Assembly (NCBI GenBank): GCA_965242965.1
Contig: OZ251518.1
Span: 928,001 to 992,000, forward strand
Direction: 5' to 3'
Length of the DNA: 64,000 nucleotides
DNA from: Candidatus Poribacteria bacterium
GTDB lineage: Bacteria; Poribacteria; WGA-4E; WGA-3G
Under the pieces are notes generated by a model, which was not told the origin of the DNA, made no database searches, and worked only from the letters and a program-made list of their open reading frames with translations. This document shows positions 12,622 through 18,969 of the stretch, one piece after another. The first letter of the stretch is position 1. Each line of letters begins with the position of its first letter. The translations under genes and the position numbers were made by a program.

Positions 12622-13164
12622 ATGGGGAATTTGGCACAGATTGAGCAGGCGGCGACGAAGATTATCGCGCTCTGTCAAAAGGAAAAACCGACGAAAACCG
12701 ACAAGCAGAAGATGCTCACGCTGCACGCCGACATCTTTAACGGCATCGAAAAACTTGCAGAATGCGAACGCTGTGGCGCGATTAGCGAGATGATTGTCAC
12801 GATGACGCTAGCGGAAGTGACAGCGAAGTTGTGCAAGGAGTGCGGTGTGAAGGCGTTGGAAACAGGGCAAATCCAGAAAACTGCCCCCCGGCGGCGGACG
12901 CGCCGCACGATGACATCAAAGCCGAAAGCCGAAACCGAAGCGCAGCAACCCGTATCTCCCGCGGAGTTGCACACCCGCGTTGAAGCGGAAACCGGCATTA
13001 AGAAGGCAGATGTCAAGCGCGTGCAGAAAATTTTAAACGACATCGCCACGCCGATGAGTCCAACGCACACCCTCACCTACGTCAAACGCGAGGTAGACAA
13101 CGCGAAGTTGAAGGTGGAGGCGGGGGCATTGGAAAAAGCGGTTGAGATGCTGATGGCGGGGTAG
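12622..13164 (+). CDS. Hypothetical protein with CxxC...CxxC Zn ribbon and basic linker
   Basis: CERCG, CKECG, PRRRTRR; 12 bp after cimA with RBS. Confidence 0.7.
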   Translation: MGNLAQIEQAATKIIALCQKEKPTKTDKQKMLTLHADIFNGIEKLAECERCGAISEMIVTMTLAEVTAKLCKECGVKALETGQIQKTAPRRRTRRTMTSKPKAETEAQQPVSPAELHTRVEAETGIKKADVKRVQKILNDIATPMSPTHTLTYVKREVDNAKLKVEAGALEKAVEMLMAG

Positions 13165-13169
13165 TCATC

Positions 13170-13600
13170 GTGTTCTTCGCAGGATACCGTTCCCTTGGAC
13201 AGCCATCGTTGTGTTCACCGTAGGGCGAGGGCCTGTCCCTCGCCATGCCGTAGCGTCCATTTTTATCGTAGGGCTTGGGCCCTCGCATGCCACACGTGCA
13301 TGCGAGCGGGTTTCCCTCGCCACAACGATCGCGGGGGACAGGCCCCCGCGCTACGGTAGCGTGAAGTGTTCTTGCCTCGCGGGGGACAGCCATCGTTGTC
13401 ATCTTCGTAGGGCTTGGGCCCTCGCATGCCACACGCGCATGCGAGAGGGTTTCCCTCGCCATGCAGCGATCGCGGGGGACAGGCCCCCGCGCTACGGGCC
13501 GCGTGGGGTTTTTGCCTCGCGGGGGACAGGCCCCCGCGCTACGGGCCGCGTGGGGTTCTTGCCTCGCGGGGGACAGGCCCCCGCCATGCAACGATCTAGC
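13170..13600. repeat. REP mosaic cluster
   Basis: GTAG hairpins; local 47-bp tandem copies at 13470-13585. Confidence 0.88.
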
Positions 13601-13638
13601 GGAATGTGCTTGGAAAAAATGCCCCGCGATAAAAAAAT

Positions 13639-13667
13639 TTGACAAATAAGATTCTATGTGGTATTAT
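13639..13667 (+). promoter_or_regulatory. sigma70-type promoter of ferredoxin
   Basis: TTGACA-17bp-TATTAT, A-rich UP-like tract. Confidence 0.75.
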
Positions 13668-13805
13668 TAATAATGTCCCTGAATCGCAACTCAGCTGACA
13701 GCGCGGTTTTCCGCAAATCCGACACCGTTTTTTGTATGTCCTTCATCAAGCCACCGGTTTGATGAAGGTTCTGATTCTAAACCGAGCGACAAGGAGTTTT
13801 CTCTC

Positions 13806-14063
13806 ATGACGTATGTAATTTGCGAACCTTGTGTTGACGTGAAGGACAGTGCATGCGTTGATGTGTGCCCTGTTGACTGCATTCACCCGCTGCCGGATGC
13901 CGAAGAGTTTGAAAAAGAAAAACAGCTCTTCATCGATCCGGAGGAGTGCATTGACTGCGGCGTTTGCGAGCCGGAATGCCCCGTGGAGGCAATCTTTATG
14001 GAAGAAGATGTGCCCGAGGAATGGGAGCATTTCATCGACATCAACGCCGACTACTTCGAGTAA
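13806..14063 (+). CDS. Ferredoxin (FdxA-type 7Fe/8Fe)
   Basis: MTYVICEPCVDVKDSACVDVCPVDCI...CIDCGVCEPECP; AAGGAG RBS. Confidence 0.95.
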   Translation: MTYVICEPCVDVKDSACVDVCPVDCIHPLPDAEEFEKEKQLFIDPEECIDCGVCEPECPVEAIFMEEDVPEEWEHFIDINADYFE

Positions 14064-14274
14064 CGCTAACGAGGCGCGCTGCAAGAGCGCGCCTCGCATC
14101 ATCGGTTATCGTCGCGCGCTGAAAAGCGCGCTCACGGTAATCGGTTGTCCCGCACCATGTAGCAATCCCAACGAGACCGGGAGGGCTCGCATACTGTCGA
14201 GACCAGGAGGTCTCTCCTACCGTCGAGACCGGGAGGGCTCGCCTACTGCGCGCCCGAACAGGTTGTCCCACACC

Positions 14275-14598
14275 ATGCAGCAATTCCAACCTACCGAACT
14301 CAAAAGAACGAGCGACGGTTTGGCTGTGAGCTGGAAAGATTCGCGCCACAGCAAACTCTCCTACCAGCTCCTCCGGGAGAAATGCCCGTGTGCCCGGTGT
14401 GAAGCGACACGCACCGGAAAAAACCCACTCCACATTTTGCCGTCCGCAGTTTTCTATGAAAACCTCACACTTGTGGACATTCAGCGGGTGGGACGTTACG
14501 CCGTGCGCCTTATCTGGAACGATGGACATCGCACCGGCATCTATACCTTTCAGTTTTTGCGCGAACTCGCCGATGCTAACAGCGAACGGACGACGTAG
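14275..14598 (+). CDS. DUF971 / GBBH-N-like domain protein
   Basis: W.D...LREKCPCARC, VGRYAV..WNDGHRTGIYTF; start trimmed to ATG 14275. Confidence 0.88.
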   Translation: MQQFQPTELKRTSDGLAVSWKDSRHSKLSYQLLREKCPCARCEATRTGKNPLHILPSAVFYENLTLVDIQRVGRYAVRLIWNDGHRTGIYTFQFLRELADANSERTT

Positions 14599-15137
14599 CA
14601 ATTCGGCGTTTTTCGGGTGGCACCCAGTGCCGCACTGAGCTCCCTGCACTGCCGCCAATAGTGCGCGTAATTGAGCGGCTTATAGTCGCGCCGCTGCCCG
14701 ATGAACGTTTTGTGGCAGCACGCCAATTCTCTCCCGTTATCCATCGGATAGCCCCAGACGCGACAGATAACCGGCCGGTGTTCATAGACGGCGCACACTC
14801 CACCGAGCAACATTGGACATTCTGCCTCAGGAGTGCCTCGAATTGTCTCTAGCACCGTCATGCCCGATGCCGGTGTGGCATTTGCCTCGTCGTAACCGAG
14901 TGCCTCAAGCCGGCTGATAGTCCGTTCCGCTTTCTGATGAATATGCGCGCGAATTTCGGCAGGCAGTGCATCCAAACCTTCTTGCAGATGGCGTGCCTCA
15001 ACCTCGCTGATTGCCATTGTCGCGGTGTTCTTGCAACAGTCAAAGCAGTTTGCAGGGCACGGCAATCTCCCATATTCTCCGCGGAGCCGCTGCACGTCTC
15101 GCGTAATTTCGGTGACAAGTTCGCGATAAGTTTGCAT
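14550..15137 (-). CDS. YkgJ/FliB-like Cys-cluster (Zn/Fe-S) protein
   Basis: CPANCFDCC, CPML..CAVYEHRPVICR; start trimmed to ATG 15137. Confidence 0.85.
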   Translation of the reverse strand: MQTYRELVTEITRDVQRLRGEYGRLPCPANCFDCCKNTATMAISEVEARHLQEGLDALPAEIRAHIHQKAERTISRLEALGYDEANATPASGMTVLETIRGTPEAECPMLLGGVCAVYEHRPVICRVWGYPMDNGRELACCHKTFIGQRRDYKPLNYAHYWRQCRELSAALGATRKTPNCYVVRSLLASASSRKN

Positions 15138-15150
15138 GATAGTCCCCGAA

Positions 15151-16098
15151 TTAGAACTCTCCGGTGGCACGGAGTGCCTTGAAATCGTAGAGCGCGTGCT
15201 GGAAGACGACGACCTTGGCACCGTTCTCCAAGATGAGTTTAATCTCGTAGGGGCTCACCCAGTCTATCGTCCCGCGAAAGATTTCACCCTCGCGAAGCGT
15301 CACCTCAATCACCTCACCGTTTTTGCGAGCGTTCCGCACCTGTTCTGCATCCAGCGCATACCCTTTTTCACTGGACTCAACTGGCTGCAATTGCTGTGCC
15401 TTGACACCCGCGTCTATGTCCATCGATGCCTGCACTTTCACGGCATCAATGTCTTTGTAACAGAATTTCACGTCTGTCTTGGCGAAAACCTGTTCCTGCC
15501 CGTTGCAGTTCAGCGTGAAACTGGTGAGCGTCATTTCCAAGACGATAGCCGGGAGCTCCCTCTGGTTATACAACGCAAAAAACATGGAGGTTTCAAGGTT
15601 AATCTGCTTCAGGATGTAAAGATCACCGAAACTCAGCTGCTTATTTGCGGCCTGTTCAGGAGACTGCGCGCGCGGCGATGCATCGCGCGGTTCTGCCCGC
15701 TCTTTCGGTGCAGGTGCCGCGGCTTTTTCTGCCTTCGGTTGCCGCCGCTGTGCAGAGGGTTGCCGCTGCCCGGATGACGTTCCGGCGTTCGTTTCCTCTT
15801 CCGCGAAGAATCCCTGGTTCTGGCCAGGAAAGCCGGCGTAACCGCGCGGAATAATCGCCTTCCCTTGCCGCAGCCAACGGCGTTCTGTCGGCGTAAGCAG
15901 CACCTCAACGTCTTGAGCAACGAGCCCCTTCTCGCCTTCAACAACGTTATACCGCACGCGCTGCCCGATGCGCAACTCTTCGTATTCCGGCCGCTGAATC
16001 GCCGAACTGTGTAAGAAGACATCCGCATCGCTGCTATCCTGCGCGATGAAACCGAAGCCCTTATCAAAATTGTAATACTTAATCCGTCCTGTAGGCAT
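15151..16098 (-). CDS. Cold-shock domain protein fused to tandem Hfq/Sm-like domains
   Basis: RNP1 KGFGFI and RNP2 DVFLH in aa 1-67; aa 249-307 align by eye with Hfq (L.xG..xG.I...Y.I.L...VFQHAL); aa 155-215 a degenerate copy. Confidence 0.8.
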   Translation of the reverse strand: MPTGRIKYYNFDKGFGFIAQDSSDADVFLHSSAIQRPEYEELRIGQRVRYNVVEGEKGLVAQDVEVLLTPTERRWLRQGKAIIPRGYAGFPGQNQGFFAEEETNAGTSSGQRQPSAQRRQPKAEKAAAPAPKERAEPRDASPRAQSPEQAANKQLSFGDLYILKQINLETSMFFALYNQRELPAIVLEMTLTSFTLNCNGQEQVFAKTDVKFCYKDIDAVKVQASMDIDAGVKAQQLQPVESSEKGYALDAEQVRNARKNGEVIEVTLREGEIFRGTIDWVSPYEIKLILENGAKVVVFQHALYDFKALRATGEF

Positions 16099-16202
16099 AA
16101 TCGACTCCTGTGTTCCTCCTCCACTTCAGGAAGGTGCCTATCGTCGTTTGCACGTTGCAAACCGCGTGCGCCCGCACCTGCAACGAGCCGGTCTTTTTTT
16201 TC

Positions 16203-16230
16203 TTGACATAAACCATTTTTCTGGTAGAAT
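16203..16230 (+). promoter_or_regulatory. sigma70-type promoter toward amidohydrolase
   Basis: TTGACA-16bp-TAGAAT. Confidence 0.55.
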
Positions 16231-16265
16231 AAGGCAAAGGAGAGTATCCTATTCCTCTACAAACT

Positions 16266-16294
16266 ATTTTAACCGATTTTGCCTTAATTGTCAA
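16266..16294 (-). promoter_or_regulatory. sigma70-type promoter of CSD-Hfq gene
   Basis: minus strand TTGACA-17bp-TAAAAT, implying a ~160-nt leader. Confidence 0.65.
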
Positions 16295-16321
16295 CTAAAA
16301 TCTGCAAAGGAGAATTTTATC

Positions 16322-17608
16322 GTGACTGATTTGACGCATCACATTCAGACTATCCGTCTCGTTGACACACATGAACACATGCGCCGAGAGAACGACTGGG
16401 TAGAAAACGGACCCGATATTCTGCAGGACTTGTTCGGTAACTACGTCCCCGCTGATCTCCACACGGCGGGTGCATCCCCTGAAGCGATGCGGAACCTGAT
16501 GGACGCGTCGCAGGATGTCGCCGAGCGGTTTGATGGCATCCGTGACGCATGGGAGGCGACACAATTCACCAGCTACGGCGAAGCCGTGCGCATCATCGCC
16601 AAGGATATCTATGGGCTCGATGAACTCACTCGCCAGGGACTCGCCGATGCCCAAGATAAGTCAAAGGCTCTCCGAAGCCCAGGCGAACGTTACCGTATTC
16701 TCCACGATGTTGCCAATCTGGACCAGGTTCAAACCGACGATTTCAGTTGGCAGTGTCTTCCTGATACATCCGGGCTCGATTTTTTCCTCTACGATTTGTC
16801 GTGGGCGACGTTCTGCAATGGACAAGTCGACCCGGGTGCTATCCACGCCGAGACAGGTATTGATGTCACCGACCTCGGTTCGCTTAAGCGTAGCATGGAG
16901 GCAATTTTTGCCAAACACGCGCCCCTGGCCATTGCCGTGAAATCGCAACACGCCTATAACCGCACGCTCAATTGGATCGAACGCAGCGATGACGAGGCGG
17001 CGCGGGCACTCAACGCTGTGCTGACACGCGATGCCTCTGAGATTGACGAAGCGACGCGCCTCTGTCTCGGCGATTGGTGTTGGGCGCGCGGCGTGGAACT
17101 TACCATTGAGCACAATCTCCCGTTCAAGATTCACACCGGGTATTACGCTGGCAATGACAGGATGCCGCTCCGCCGCATTCCCGCGGGGAATATGTGCGCC
17201 TTGTTTGCCCGGTATCTCGATGCGAAGTTTGTCCTAATGCACATCGCCTATCCTTACAATGACGAACTCGTCGCGCTGGCGAAGCATTACCGCAATATCT
17301 GGGTAGACTTCTGCTGGGCGTGGAGCATCGATGCCTATAGTTCGCGCGATTTCCTGCGGCGATGCATCCATGCCGTGCCGTCAAACAAGTTGTTCGCCTT
17401 CGGCGGCGACACCGGCTGGCCCACGAGTGCGATGGCTTACGCAATTCAGGCGAGAAACGGAATCCGTCGCGCCTTGGAGGCAGAAATCGCTGACGGCTAC
17501 CTCACCGAAAAACAGGCGATGGCGTTTGCAACCCGCATCATGCACACGAACCAGTATGCCTGCTTTGATGTTGAAGGCACGCGTGCCAACATCCAGAAAG
17601 CCGCGTAG
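16322..17608 (+). CDS. Amidohydrolase family protein (Amidohydro_2/uronate isomerase-like)
   Basis: VDTHEH, KIHTG, LMH..YPY, FGGD; GTG start with AAGGAG RBS. Confidence 0.85.
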   Translation: MTDLTHHIQTIRLVDTHEHMRRENDWVENGPDILQDLFGNYVPADLHTAGASPEAMRNLMDASQDVAERFDGIRDAWEATQFTSYGEAVRIIAKDIYGLDELTRQGLADAQDKSKALRSPGERYRILHDVANLDQVQTDDFSWQCLPDTSGLDFFLYDLSWATFCNGQVDPGAIHAETGIDVTDLGSLKRSMEAIFAKHAPLAIAVKSQHAYNRTLNWIERSDDEAARALNAVLTRDASEIDEATRLCLGDWCWARGVELTIEHNLPFKIHTGYYAGNDRMPLRRIPAGNMCALFARYLDAKFVLMHIAYPYNDELVALAKHYRNIWVDFCWAWSIDAYSSRDFLRRCIHAVPSNKLFAFGGDTGWPTSAMAYAIQARNGIRRALEAEIADGYLTEKQAMAFATRIMHTNQYACFDVEGTRANIQKAA

Positions 17609-17609
17609 C

Positions 17610-17925
17610 ATCCGATACCGCCTTGGCCCGTGGCGCGGGGGCCTGTCCCCCGCGTCGCCGATGCCGTCTTGGCCCGTAGCGCGGGGGCCTGTCCCCCGCG
17701 ATCGTTGCATGCGAGAGACATGCCCTCGTCTTCCCGTAGGAGAGACCTCCCTGTCTCGATTGTCCTCCGCGTCGCCGATGCATGGCGAGGGAAACCCGCT
17801 CGCATGCGCGGATGGCATGCGAGGGCCCAAGCCCTACGCAGAAGGGACCGTTTTTTTCCGTAGCGCGGGGGCCTGTCCCCCGCGATCGTTGGCACGGCGA
17901 GAGACAACCCCTCGCCCTACGGTAA
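17610..17925. repeat. REP mosaic cluster
   Basis: GTAG hairpin modules between convergent genes. Confidence 0.88.
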
Positions 17926-17934
17926 GAGAACCGG

Positions 17935-18969
17935 TTACTGAAACGCTCCCAGGCTCTCTATATAAGGCGGCCGCGCCACCCCCTTCTCCGTGATAATCGC
18001 CGTAACCAACGCTGCAGGCGTGACATCAAACGCAGGACTGTAAACCTTCACGCCTTCCGGTGCAGTCATCTTGCCGAATCCTTCCGTGATTTCTTCCGCT
18101 GCGCGCTGCTCAATAGGAATCTCGTCCCCGGTTTTCAGCGCGAAATCCAGTGTAGAGGTAGGCGCGGCAACATAGAACGGAATCCCGTGTGCTTCGGCGA
18201 GGATAGCGACGTTGTAAGTGCCGATTTTGTTTGCCGTGTCGCCGTTCGCGGCGATTCTGTCCGCCCCGACGATAACGCATTGGATCTTCCCCTCTTTCAT
18301 CACCTGCGCTGCCATGTTGTCACAGATGAGCGTCACGTCGATGCCTGCCTGCATCAGTTCCCATGTCGTCAGGCGCGCGCCTTGCAAGAGGGGCCGCGTC
18401 TCATCGGCGAAGACGTGGATGTTCTTCCCTGCTTCGTGCGCGCTGAACATGACTGCCAACGCCGTGCCGTAGTCGGATGTCGCCAACCCGCCGGCGTTGC
18501 AATGCGTCAAAATCGTGTCGTTTTCATTCAGTAATGCCATGCCGTGCTGGCCGATGGCGCGACACATCGCCTTATCTTCCTCAATGATTTCCTGTGCTTC
18601 AGCGAGGAGCCGTTCTTTGAGCGCGGGGATGTCAAGGTGGCTGTTTTCCGCCGCCGTGCGATTTATCCGCTCTAGTGCCCAGAACAGGTTAACGGCTGTC
18701 GGGCGCGAGGTTGCGAGATAGTCAGTTGCGGATTTCAGTTCCGCGGCAAATTCATCGTAGGTTGTAGCCGTGGAATCCCATGTGCCGAGGACTGCGCCTA
18801 GCGCGGCAGCGATGCCGATAGCCGGTGCACCACGGACGCGCAAGGCTTTAATCGCCTCCCACACCGATGCGATGTCATCGCAATAAATCTGTTTAAATTC
18901 AGTAGGCAGCAGCGTCTGATCGATCATCCGGATTCTGCCATTTGCCCATTCAATAGTTGAGACTGCCAT
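17935..18969 (-). CDS. mtnA: S-methyl-5-thioribose-1-phosphate isomerase
   Basis: VRGAPAIG, SRPTAVNLFWA, THCNAG.LAT..YGTAL, ETRPLLQGARLT, NKIGTY, PAFDVTP. Confidence 0.96.
   Translation of the reverse strand: MAVSTIEWANGRIRMIDQTLLPTEFKQIYCDDIASVWEAIKALRVRGAPAIGIAAALGAVLGTWDSTATTYDEFAAELKSATDYLATSRPTAVNLFWALERINRTAAENSHLDIPALKERLLAEAQEIIEEDKAMCRAIGQHGMALLNENDTILTHCNAGGLATSDYGTALAVMFSAHEAGKNIHVFADETRPLLQGARLTTWELMQAGIDVTLICDNMAAQVMKEGKIQCVIVGADRIAANGDTANKIGTYNVAILAEAHGIPFYVAAPTSTLDFALKTGDEIPIEQRAAEEITEGFGKMTAPEGVKVYSPAFDVTPAALVTAIITEKGVARPPYIESLGAFQ

Follow-up and report, generated by a model that had tools for sequence, protein, structure and literature searches.

The stretch of DNA analysed here (the window) comprises 64,000 nucleotides (nt) from the genome of a sponge-associated Candidatus Poribacteria bacterium (contig OZ251518.1, positions 928,001 to 992,000), an assembly of 5.7 Mb on two contigs with a completeness of 94.7%. 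On its reverse strand lies a gene for a protein of 315 amino acids (aa) which joins an N-terminal cold-shock domain (CSD) to a C-terminal module of two Hfq-like Sm domains, and which is the subject of our analysis (Table 1). The gene is real and strongly conserved. Its open reading frame (ORF) is intact, with an ATG at 16098 and an AGGAG 7 nt 5' of it, and the protein has 394 full-length relatives at expectation values (E) of at most 1e-3. Among 62 related loci in a collection of species genomes, the gene is intact in all but one (L062), where it is cut by the end of the contig. Sixty of these loci belong to Poribacteria and two to an 'uncultured bacterium', and the organism names on the relatives are, where present, those of Poribacteria throughout.

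A canonical CSD at the N-terminus had been proposed in a first-pass annotation made by a model from the sequence alone, and domain searches bear this out: the Pfam CSD family (PF00313) matches aa 3-65 with an E of 4.5e-19 and 68.5 bits against a cut-off of 27. The full-length AlphaFold2 model predicts the five strands of the fold at residues 3-10, 15-20, 26-30, 47-54 and 59-66, with a local confidence score (pLDDT) of about 94, and the segments KGFGFI and VFLH, which we take to be the RNP1 and RNP2 motifs, are both present. The NCBIfam models for CspD and CspE match the N-terminal 65 aa equally well (E about 5e-19), but their 68 bits stay so far below the equivalog cut-offs (115-120; 115-152 for the CspA, CspD and CspE models together) that the domain is to be regarded as a true CSD, yet not as an orthologue of a named Csp.

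What follows the CSD is not a uniform linker. When the window protein is aligned with the 120 orthologues listed, mean column identity is 0.97 over the CSD (aa 1-67) and still 0.93 over aa 68-100, before it falls to 0.52 over aa 101-152; it rises again to 0.92 in Sm domain 1, with 0.74 between the domains and 0.85 in Sm domain 2. The conserved stretch after the CSD includes a predicted short helix (70-77) and the motif LTPxExxxLRQGKxxIPR, which recurs in distant CSD-bearing members (P0121, P0125, P0126, P0130 and P0131) whose C-terminal modules are just 32-47% identical to that of the window protein. Beyond it, pLDDT in the full-length model is below 50 at aa 83-112 and lies at 39-58 for the 10-residue blocks of aa 81-150, and both length and composition of this part differ widely between relatives. 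Of the disordered linker of about 85 aa that had been proposed, the variable part thus stands while the conserved first part does not: the free tether amounts to just 50-60 residues or so. The predicted template modelling score (pTM), 0.89 when the module is folded by itself, drops to 0.58 for the full chain, which is consistent with a CSD whose position towards the module is not set.

For the C-terminal region the same annotation had proposed an Hfq-like domain preceded by a degenerate second copy. A search with the module (aa 145-315) against 1.84 billion cluster representatives yielded 163 proteins at E of at most 1e-3 and 45 at 1e-10 or below, in host proteins of 146-1142 aa; most of these matches span almost the full query. 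From 150 listed relatives, 19 short or fragmentary ones were left out, so that our alignment A1 consists of 131 relatives and the window protein (132 sequences). An AlphaFold2 model of the module, built with an alignment of 125 relatives, has a mean pLDDT of 94 and consists of a helix, five strands, two short helices, a helix and again five strands. As helix plus five strands occurs twice, the module is predicted to hold two Sm folds, joined by a connector with helices at module residues 72-81 and 86-90; Foldseek matches to Hfq agree with this. Among 48,161 solved chains, none aligned over both domains of the module, the longest alignment covering 80 residues. A tblastn search with the module against phages gave no match, and a plasmid match of 46 residues (E 4e-3) was judged irrelevant. 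As a side observation, a feature search in the ESM Atlas returned, beside Hfq clusters, clusters of the flagellin phase-1 repressor FljA (PF03614), with scores rated weak; PF03614 is touched by 3 of 126 members of the module family (best E 0.017), nor did a literature search show FljA to have been described as Sm-like. We treat the FljA link as a lead only.

By profile comparison and predicted fold, the second domain of the module is an Hfq homologue. In the window protein itself the matches are modest: aa 252-304 score with Pfam Hfq_1 (PF21979) at an E of 4e-4 and 20.9-22.2 bits, below the cut-off of 27, Pfam Hfq (PF17209) reaches 12.8 bits against the same value, the NCBIfam model Hfq_rel_Cyano gives an E of 1e-3, and phmmer relates domain 2 to the Methanocaldococcus jannaschii Hfq 2qtx at an E of 0.005. 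The family as a whole carries more weight. With its profile, 37 distinct Hfq sequences of solved structure are detected (E between 3.6e-7 and 5e-4), in each case through the domain-2 part. Among the 132 members, Pfam Hfq recognises 44 and Hfq_1 30 at E of at most 1e-3 (best 1.7e-20); at E of at most 0.1, and counted over 126 members, the numbers are 78 and 81. Foldseek aligns domain 2 with Hfq at template modelling (TM) scores of 0.74-0.89. Three of its residues, G271, G276 and H301, are almost invariant across the family; they are the two Sm1 glycines and the Sm2 histidine. The Sm2 segment agrees in part with the Hfq motif, [YF]-K-H-A-[IL] (positions from HMMER alignments): it reads F-Q-H-A-L, where the lysine is Gln here and Arg in the family consensus. 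In the alignment, domain 2 also retains an aromatic residue, Tyr284, which together with His301 occupies positions of the uridine pocket, presumably those of Phe/Tyr42 and His57 in Hfq.

Sm domain 1 is Hfq-like by structure, by profile alignment and by its stand-alone relatives. No Pfam Hfq match of its own was obtained for it in the window protein, and its one Pfam label is a weak match to DUF6984 (E 0.0066-0.03). Its predicted helix and five strands are modelled with a pLDDT of about 97, and when it was compared, by a search other than Foldseek, with the 48,161 solved chains, the top seven were all Hfq (Z 7.0-7.6, over model residues 9-74). Hfq chains superpose on domain 1 with Z 7.0-7.7 and a root-mean-square deviation (rmsd) of 0.9-2.2 A over 60-65 residues; in the re-scored Foldseek list, where Z reaches 7.7, Staphylococcus aureus Hfq does so with an rmsd of 0.9 A over 61 of 61 residues. 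The sub-alignments of the two domains align with each other in register (hhalign probability 96.7%, E 4.2e-10, 54 columns), and the proposal of a second, degenerate copy has held up. Moreover, two deep-branching genomes of the same phylum (G002 and G004) contain stand-alone ORFs of 83 and 93 aa which the profile finds with its domain-1 part at E of 2-3e-9, and these pass both Pfam Hfq_1 (44.3 and 40.7 bits) and Pfam Hfq (27.7 and 29.6 bits). The same genomes also encode separate domain-2-like Hfq ORFs of 92-126 aa; in them both Sm domains exist as small genes on different contigs (L069, L070 and L072-L074), all of which pass Hfq_1. That the two Sm domains are kept there as separate genes suggests that the divergence of the paralogues preceded their fusion. 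Since both domains trace to Hfq, the module looks like two diverged Hfq paralogues in one chain. Domain 1 keeps the pocket lysine (K207, almost invariant) and lacks the histidine; if the domains form a ring, its RNA pockets would be non-equivalent.

How widespread is this architecture, and what does it coexist with? Of 151 Poribacteria genomes taken from all over the phylum, 149 contain the module, often with two to six matches per genome, and it is present in all 131 of those with a completeness of at least 90% and a contamination of at most 5%. For distant members of the module family, two cluster look-ups gave either Poribacteria or no name, and a profile search of a word-indexed database brought back the orthologues. 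The window genome has two Hfq-type loci, both encoding two-domain modules: the CSD fusion gene and a gene for a protein of 196 aa, the only one in the genome to pass Pfam Hfq (30.9 bits). The latter aligns with both domains of the module profile (hhalign probability 94.6%, E 7e-8, 136 columns); BLASTP with the module does not find it, and the two are linked by profile comparison only. A single-domain Hfq, the presence of which the first-pass annotation had wanted checked, was not found in the window genome, complete to 94.7%, with PF17209 or PF21979. The fusion gene is also its sole CSD match. In a census of 61 genomes of the order, which are related by kinship and do not count as independent observations, the CSD of the window's own family (24 genomes) always lies in an open frame of at least 188 aa, bar one frame of 80 aa at a contig edge, and in two sister families (10 of 10 and 22 of 22 genomes) CSD frames of 67-109 aa exist besides the long frame. 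By this census, free Csp genes seem to have been lost in the family of the window, leaving the fusion. The roles of free Csp and of ordinary Hfq appear to be filled by the fusion in this lineage.

What, then, does the gene encode? We favor a composite RNA-binding chaperone built from a CSD and two Hfq-derived Sm domains, and put the probability of this reading at about 0.6. Beside the homologies, the domains that accompany the module bear on it. In alignment A1 these are CSD (16 of 132 sequences), the helix-turn-helix (HTH) families HTH_3 (4) and HTH_31 (4), S1 (2) and GmrSD_N (2), with single occurrences of ParB_N, DnaJ_C and HEAT_2; some members consist of nothing but the module, at about 170 aa. 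With pieces of the window protein itself as phmmer queries, 15 of 131 members match the CSD, 130 domain 2 and 35 domain 1. We count it in favor of a chaperone that the N-terminal partners CSD (16), HTH_3 (4) and S1 (2) are nucleic-acid binders. The same list can be turned towards the main rival, in which the module forms no ring but is a monomeric or dimeric sensor of a ligand or of nucleic acid, like Sm-fold WYL domains, and modulates whatever partner is fused to its N-terminus, a CSD here and an HTH elsewhere; the product would be a regulated transcription or translation factor and no general chaperone. Its fusions to XRE-type HTH domains, to GmrSD_N and to ParB_N would then be expected company, the WYL regulators DriD, PafBC, CapW and BrxR do match structurally (Z 5.1-6.0), and the monomer's pTM of 0.89 speaks for two domains packed into a compact unit that is complete by itself. 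We nevertheless consider a sensor unlikely. Hfq proper, and not WYL, supplies the top structural match and every significant match by sequence, the Sm2 histidine and both Sm1 glycines are almost invariant, and the other Hfq-type gene of the genome has the same two-domain form with no extra domain. Such a bare two-domain gene of 196 aa is what would be expected if the module itself is the Hfq of this lineage.

Several results weigh against the composite chaperone. The window protein's own scores with Hfq_1 and Hfq are both under the Pfam cut-offs, and Z values of 7-8, as obtained for domain 1, are rated middling by the structure-search tool; for the superposition of this modelled domain we give more weight to the complete coverage of Hfq chains and to the place of Hfq at the head of the list. 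At the RNA-contact positions, in Hfq numbering, the place of Lys56 is taken by Gln in domain 2, that of the distal-face Tyr25 by Thr and that of Gln8 by Asp, and a Tyr found across the family in domain 1 is Thr in the window protein. The fusions to HTH, GmrSD and ParB_N domains point to DNA-related or sensor roles over RNA chaperoning. Finally, the sole prediction of a trimer, with three copies of the module and alignment A2, scored 0.00 in both runs, a result we have used neither way.

In the mechanism that we propose for the composite chaperone, the N-terminal CSD would hold single-stranded RNA and melt its structure, while the conserved basic extension and the flexible tether of 50-60 aa would join it to the rigid two-Sm module. 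The module may assemble like Hfq, by strand-to-strand pairing into a ring; most simply, three chains would contribute six Sm domains, in which Hfq-like domains would alternate with diverged domains keeping only the lysine K207. Such a ring could bind and anneal RNAs, with the tethered CSDs capturing or unwinding single strands nearby. From annealing by the proposed ring together with unwinding by the CSD, it would follow that in the window's lineage the fusion does the jobs of free Csp and Hfq, which are separate elsewhere. The more specific proposal, in which one composite machine, a pseudo-hexamer of three chains with alternating intact and degenerate pockets and three tethered CSDs, replaces free Csp and single-domain Hfq, is put forward tentatively: we think it possible, with the odds rather against it.

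Table 1. Features of the CSD-Hfq gene, its surroundings and the second Hfq-type gene of the genome; positions are those of the window unless another sequence is named.
Feature	Position	Strand	Basis
CSD + tandem Hfq-like gene, 315 aa	15151..16098	-	ORF list and sequence
Cold-shock domain, aa 3-65	15904..16092	-	Pfam PF00313 and AlphaFold2 model
Conserved post-CSD extension, aa 68-90, LTPxExxxLRQGKxxIPR...	15829..15897	-	column identity and motif
Variable tether, aa 91-150, probably disordered	15649..15828	-	pLDDT and column identity
Sm/Hfq-like domain 1, aa 153-218	15445..15642	-	model, structure search, hhalign
Interdomain connector, aa 219-250, two short helices	15349..15444	-	AlphaFold2 model
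Hfq-homologous domain 2, aa 251-310	15169..15348	-	Pfam, family profile, Foldseek
YkgJ-type Cys-cluster gene, 195 aa, 13 nt downstream of the CSD-Hfq stop	14550..15137	-	PF03692
Promoter-like site TTGACA-17-TAAAAT	16266..16294	-	consensus scan, 11/12 matches
Second Hfq-type gene, 196 aa, no CSD	L001:1135-1725 = G000 contig 1, about 3904636-3905226	+	Pfam Hfq

Downstream of the CSD-Hfq gene lies the YkgJ-type gene which the first-pass annotation had named as a possible partner; its ATG at 15137 is indeed 13 nt after the stop. The assignment of the 195-aa protein to the Cys-cluster family PF03692 is close to threshold (23.1 bits against a cut-off of 23, and 19.7 bits in a six-frame search of the genome), and a second PF03692 gene elsewhere in the genome scores higher. 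One may therefore ask whether CSD-Hfq works as an obligate pair with the YkgJ-type protein, for instance as a modifying enzyme, or a sensor subunit for metals or redox state, that would control the chaperone. The two genes share a strand and the short gap has no convincing terminator, and a YkgJ homologue follows directly downstream in each of the 61 loci that continue beyond the gene (L062 being cut off), its start lying 18-153 nt past the matched region. However, the same 61 loci equally retain the genes for MtnA, an amidohydrolase-like protein, a DUF971-like protein and a ferredoxin; since the whole neighborhood is syntenic, the adjacency reflects the general synteny of close relatives and has little independent weight. 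Furthermore, in two genomes of the same class but another family (G046 and G139) the YkgJ homologues and the CSD-module gene are on different contigs, and the ORF downstream of the CSD-module gene in G046 looks, from its N-terminus, like a putative glycerol-3-phosphate dehydrogenase. Given also the better-scoring PF03692 gene elsewhere, an obligate pair strikes us as quite improbable. Co-transcription of the two genes is plausible within the order of the window; a functional partnership is weakly supported.

Upstream of the gene, the promoter-like site of Table 1 is a pattern match only and is kept in the closest locus (L002) alone; if this putative promoter were used, the mRNA would have a leader of about 160 nt. 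The divergent intergenic region carries back-to-back promoter-like sites at 16203-16294, with 11/12 matches each. Within the leader, a block at 16125-16165 (-), about 40-65 nt 5' of the start codon, is conserved as AATGCTCGCGCAGGAACGCGAATGG in most loci; it is found at the matching place in L004-L059 and is thus shared by many orthologous leaders. RNAalifold predicted zero consensus pairs for 20 CSD-Hfq leaders, and Rfam gave no match at E of at most 1 over 13000-18500. A structured leader element was rejected: two hairpins picked out by eye for this block had no covariation above that of shuffled alignments, 239 of 500 of which reached the observed score.

The wider surroundings hold some further features. 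Two clusters of GC-rich palindromic repeats, at 13197-13610 and 17589-17925, lie in opposite orientation, share the core CGCGGGGGACAGGCCCCCGCG and can be read, from their sequence, as REP-like (repetitive extragenic palindromic) elements. They flank a stretch of about 4 kb with the ferredoxin, DUF971-like, YkgJ, CSD-Hfq and amidohydrolase-like genes, and the odd Gly/Pro/Arg-rich ORFs at these positions are explained by the repeats. A unit of 25-26 nt (CGAGACCGGGAGGGCTCGC...) occurs in three tandem copies at 14172-14248, just upstream of the DUF971-like ORF. At 12622-13164 (+), an ORF of 180 aa with no function assigned is placed between one of the repeat clusters and a 5' neighbor whose translation reads like that of a citramalate/isopropylmalate synthase; this ORF is kept in three of the 62 related loci (L002, L003 and L061).

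How does the CSD-Hfq protein compare with known systems? With bacterial Hfq (S. aureus 1kq1/1kq2, Escherichia coli 1hk9, Caulobacter 6gwk), the module has the predicted Sm fold of a helix and five strands in common, in each of its two domains, and domain 2 shares in addition the glycines of Sm1 and, in Sm2, the motif [FY]-x-H-A. It differs from them in having two Hfq-type domains per chain, a helical connector of about 35 aa and an N-terminal CSD, and in that its domain 1 is without the histidine; the protein also stays under the Hfq cut-offs of Pfam. For domain 2, the best labels in Pfam and NCBIfam come from Cyanobacterial Hfq (3hfn, 3hfo) and Hfq_1, and 3hfo is among the top structural matches; these proteins, however, have a single domain of about 70 aa, and their sequence similarity to domain 2 is weak (E 0.036-1.8). 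Proteins of the CspA/CspE type resemble the N-terminal 65 aa but have about 70 aa in total, against 315 here, where a conserved basic extension and the Hfq module are added in the only CSD protein of the genome. In eukaryotic Sm/Lsm rings, diverged Sm paralogues form non-equivalent RNA pockets from seven separate chains. Their chains match domain 2 at Z 5.4-5.7, while in the window protein two paralogous domains are joined covalently and the ring itself is part of our proposal. Eukaryotic heteromeric Sm/Lsm rings are also treated in a review whose passages on fusions describe Sm modules joined to other domains, among them zinc-finger-Hfq fusions on Thermococcus and Methanococcus plasmids (PMC3710371). 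As described there, these likewise combine an N-terminal nucleic-acid-binding domain with a C-terminal Hfq-like domain, but they pair a C2H2 zinc finger with a single Hfq domain on archaeal plasmids, whereas the window protein pairs a CSD with a tandem and belongs to a phylum-wide chromosomal family; the fusion passages of that paper make no mention of a cold-shock fusion or a tandem Hfq (PMC3710371).

A full-text literature search, with most subscription journals outside its coverage, turned up neither a tandem Hfq nor a fusion of Hfq with a CSD. The earlier suggestion that the architecture had not been described agrees with this in part; in databases, however, it has left traces, as CSD plus Hfq_1 is precomputed in Pfam on 23 of the 120 orthologues listed, and some members are labelled 'cold shock domain-containing protein', 'CspA family cold shock protein' or 'sRNA-binding regulator protein Hfq'. 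As far as the literature search reaches, a CSD with a covalent tandem of Hfq-derived domains is undescribed in print.

Hfq and the cold-shock proteins are the two textbook RNA chaperones of bacteria and, to our knowledge, have always been studied as separate small proteins. Their fusion suggests that melting and annealing of RNA may be coupled within one particle, and with the fusion as the sole CSD here and short Csp kept in sister families, the Poribacteria offer a natural experiment on which of these functions are indispensable. Although the host is uncultivated, the protein is small, soluble-looking and testable in E. coli. With a covalent tandem Hfq, the ability to make Sm rings out of non-equivalent units would be shown to extend from eukaryotes to bacteria; should the composite ring exist as outlined, it would be the bacterial counterpart of the heteromeric Sm rings of eukaryotes, in which RNA melting and annealing are physically coupled.

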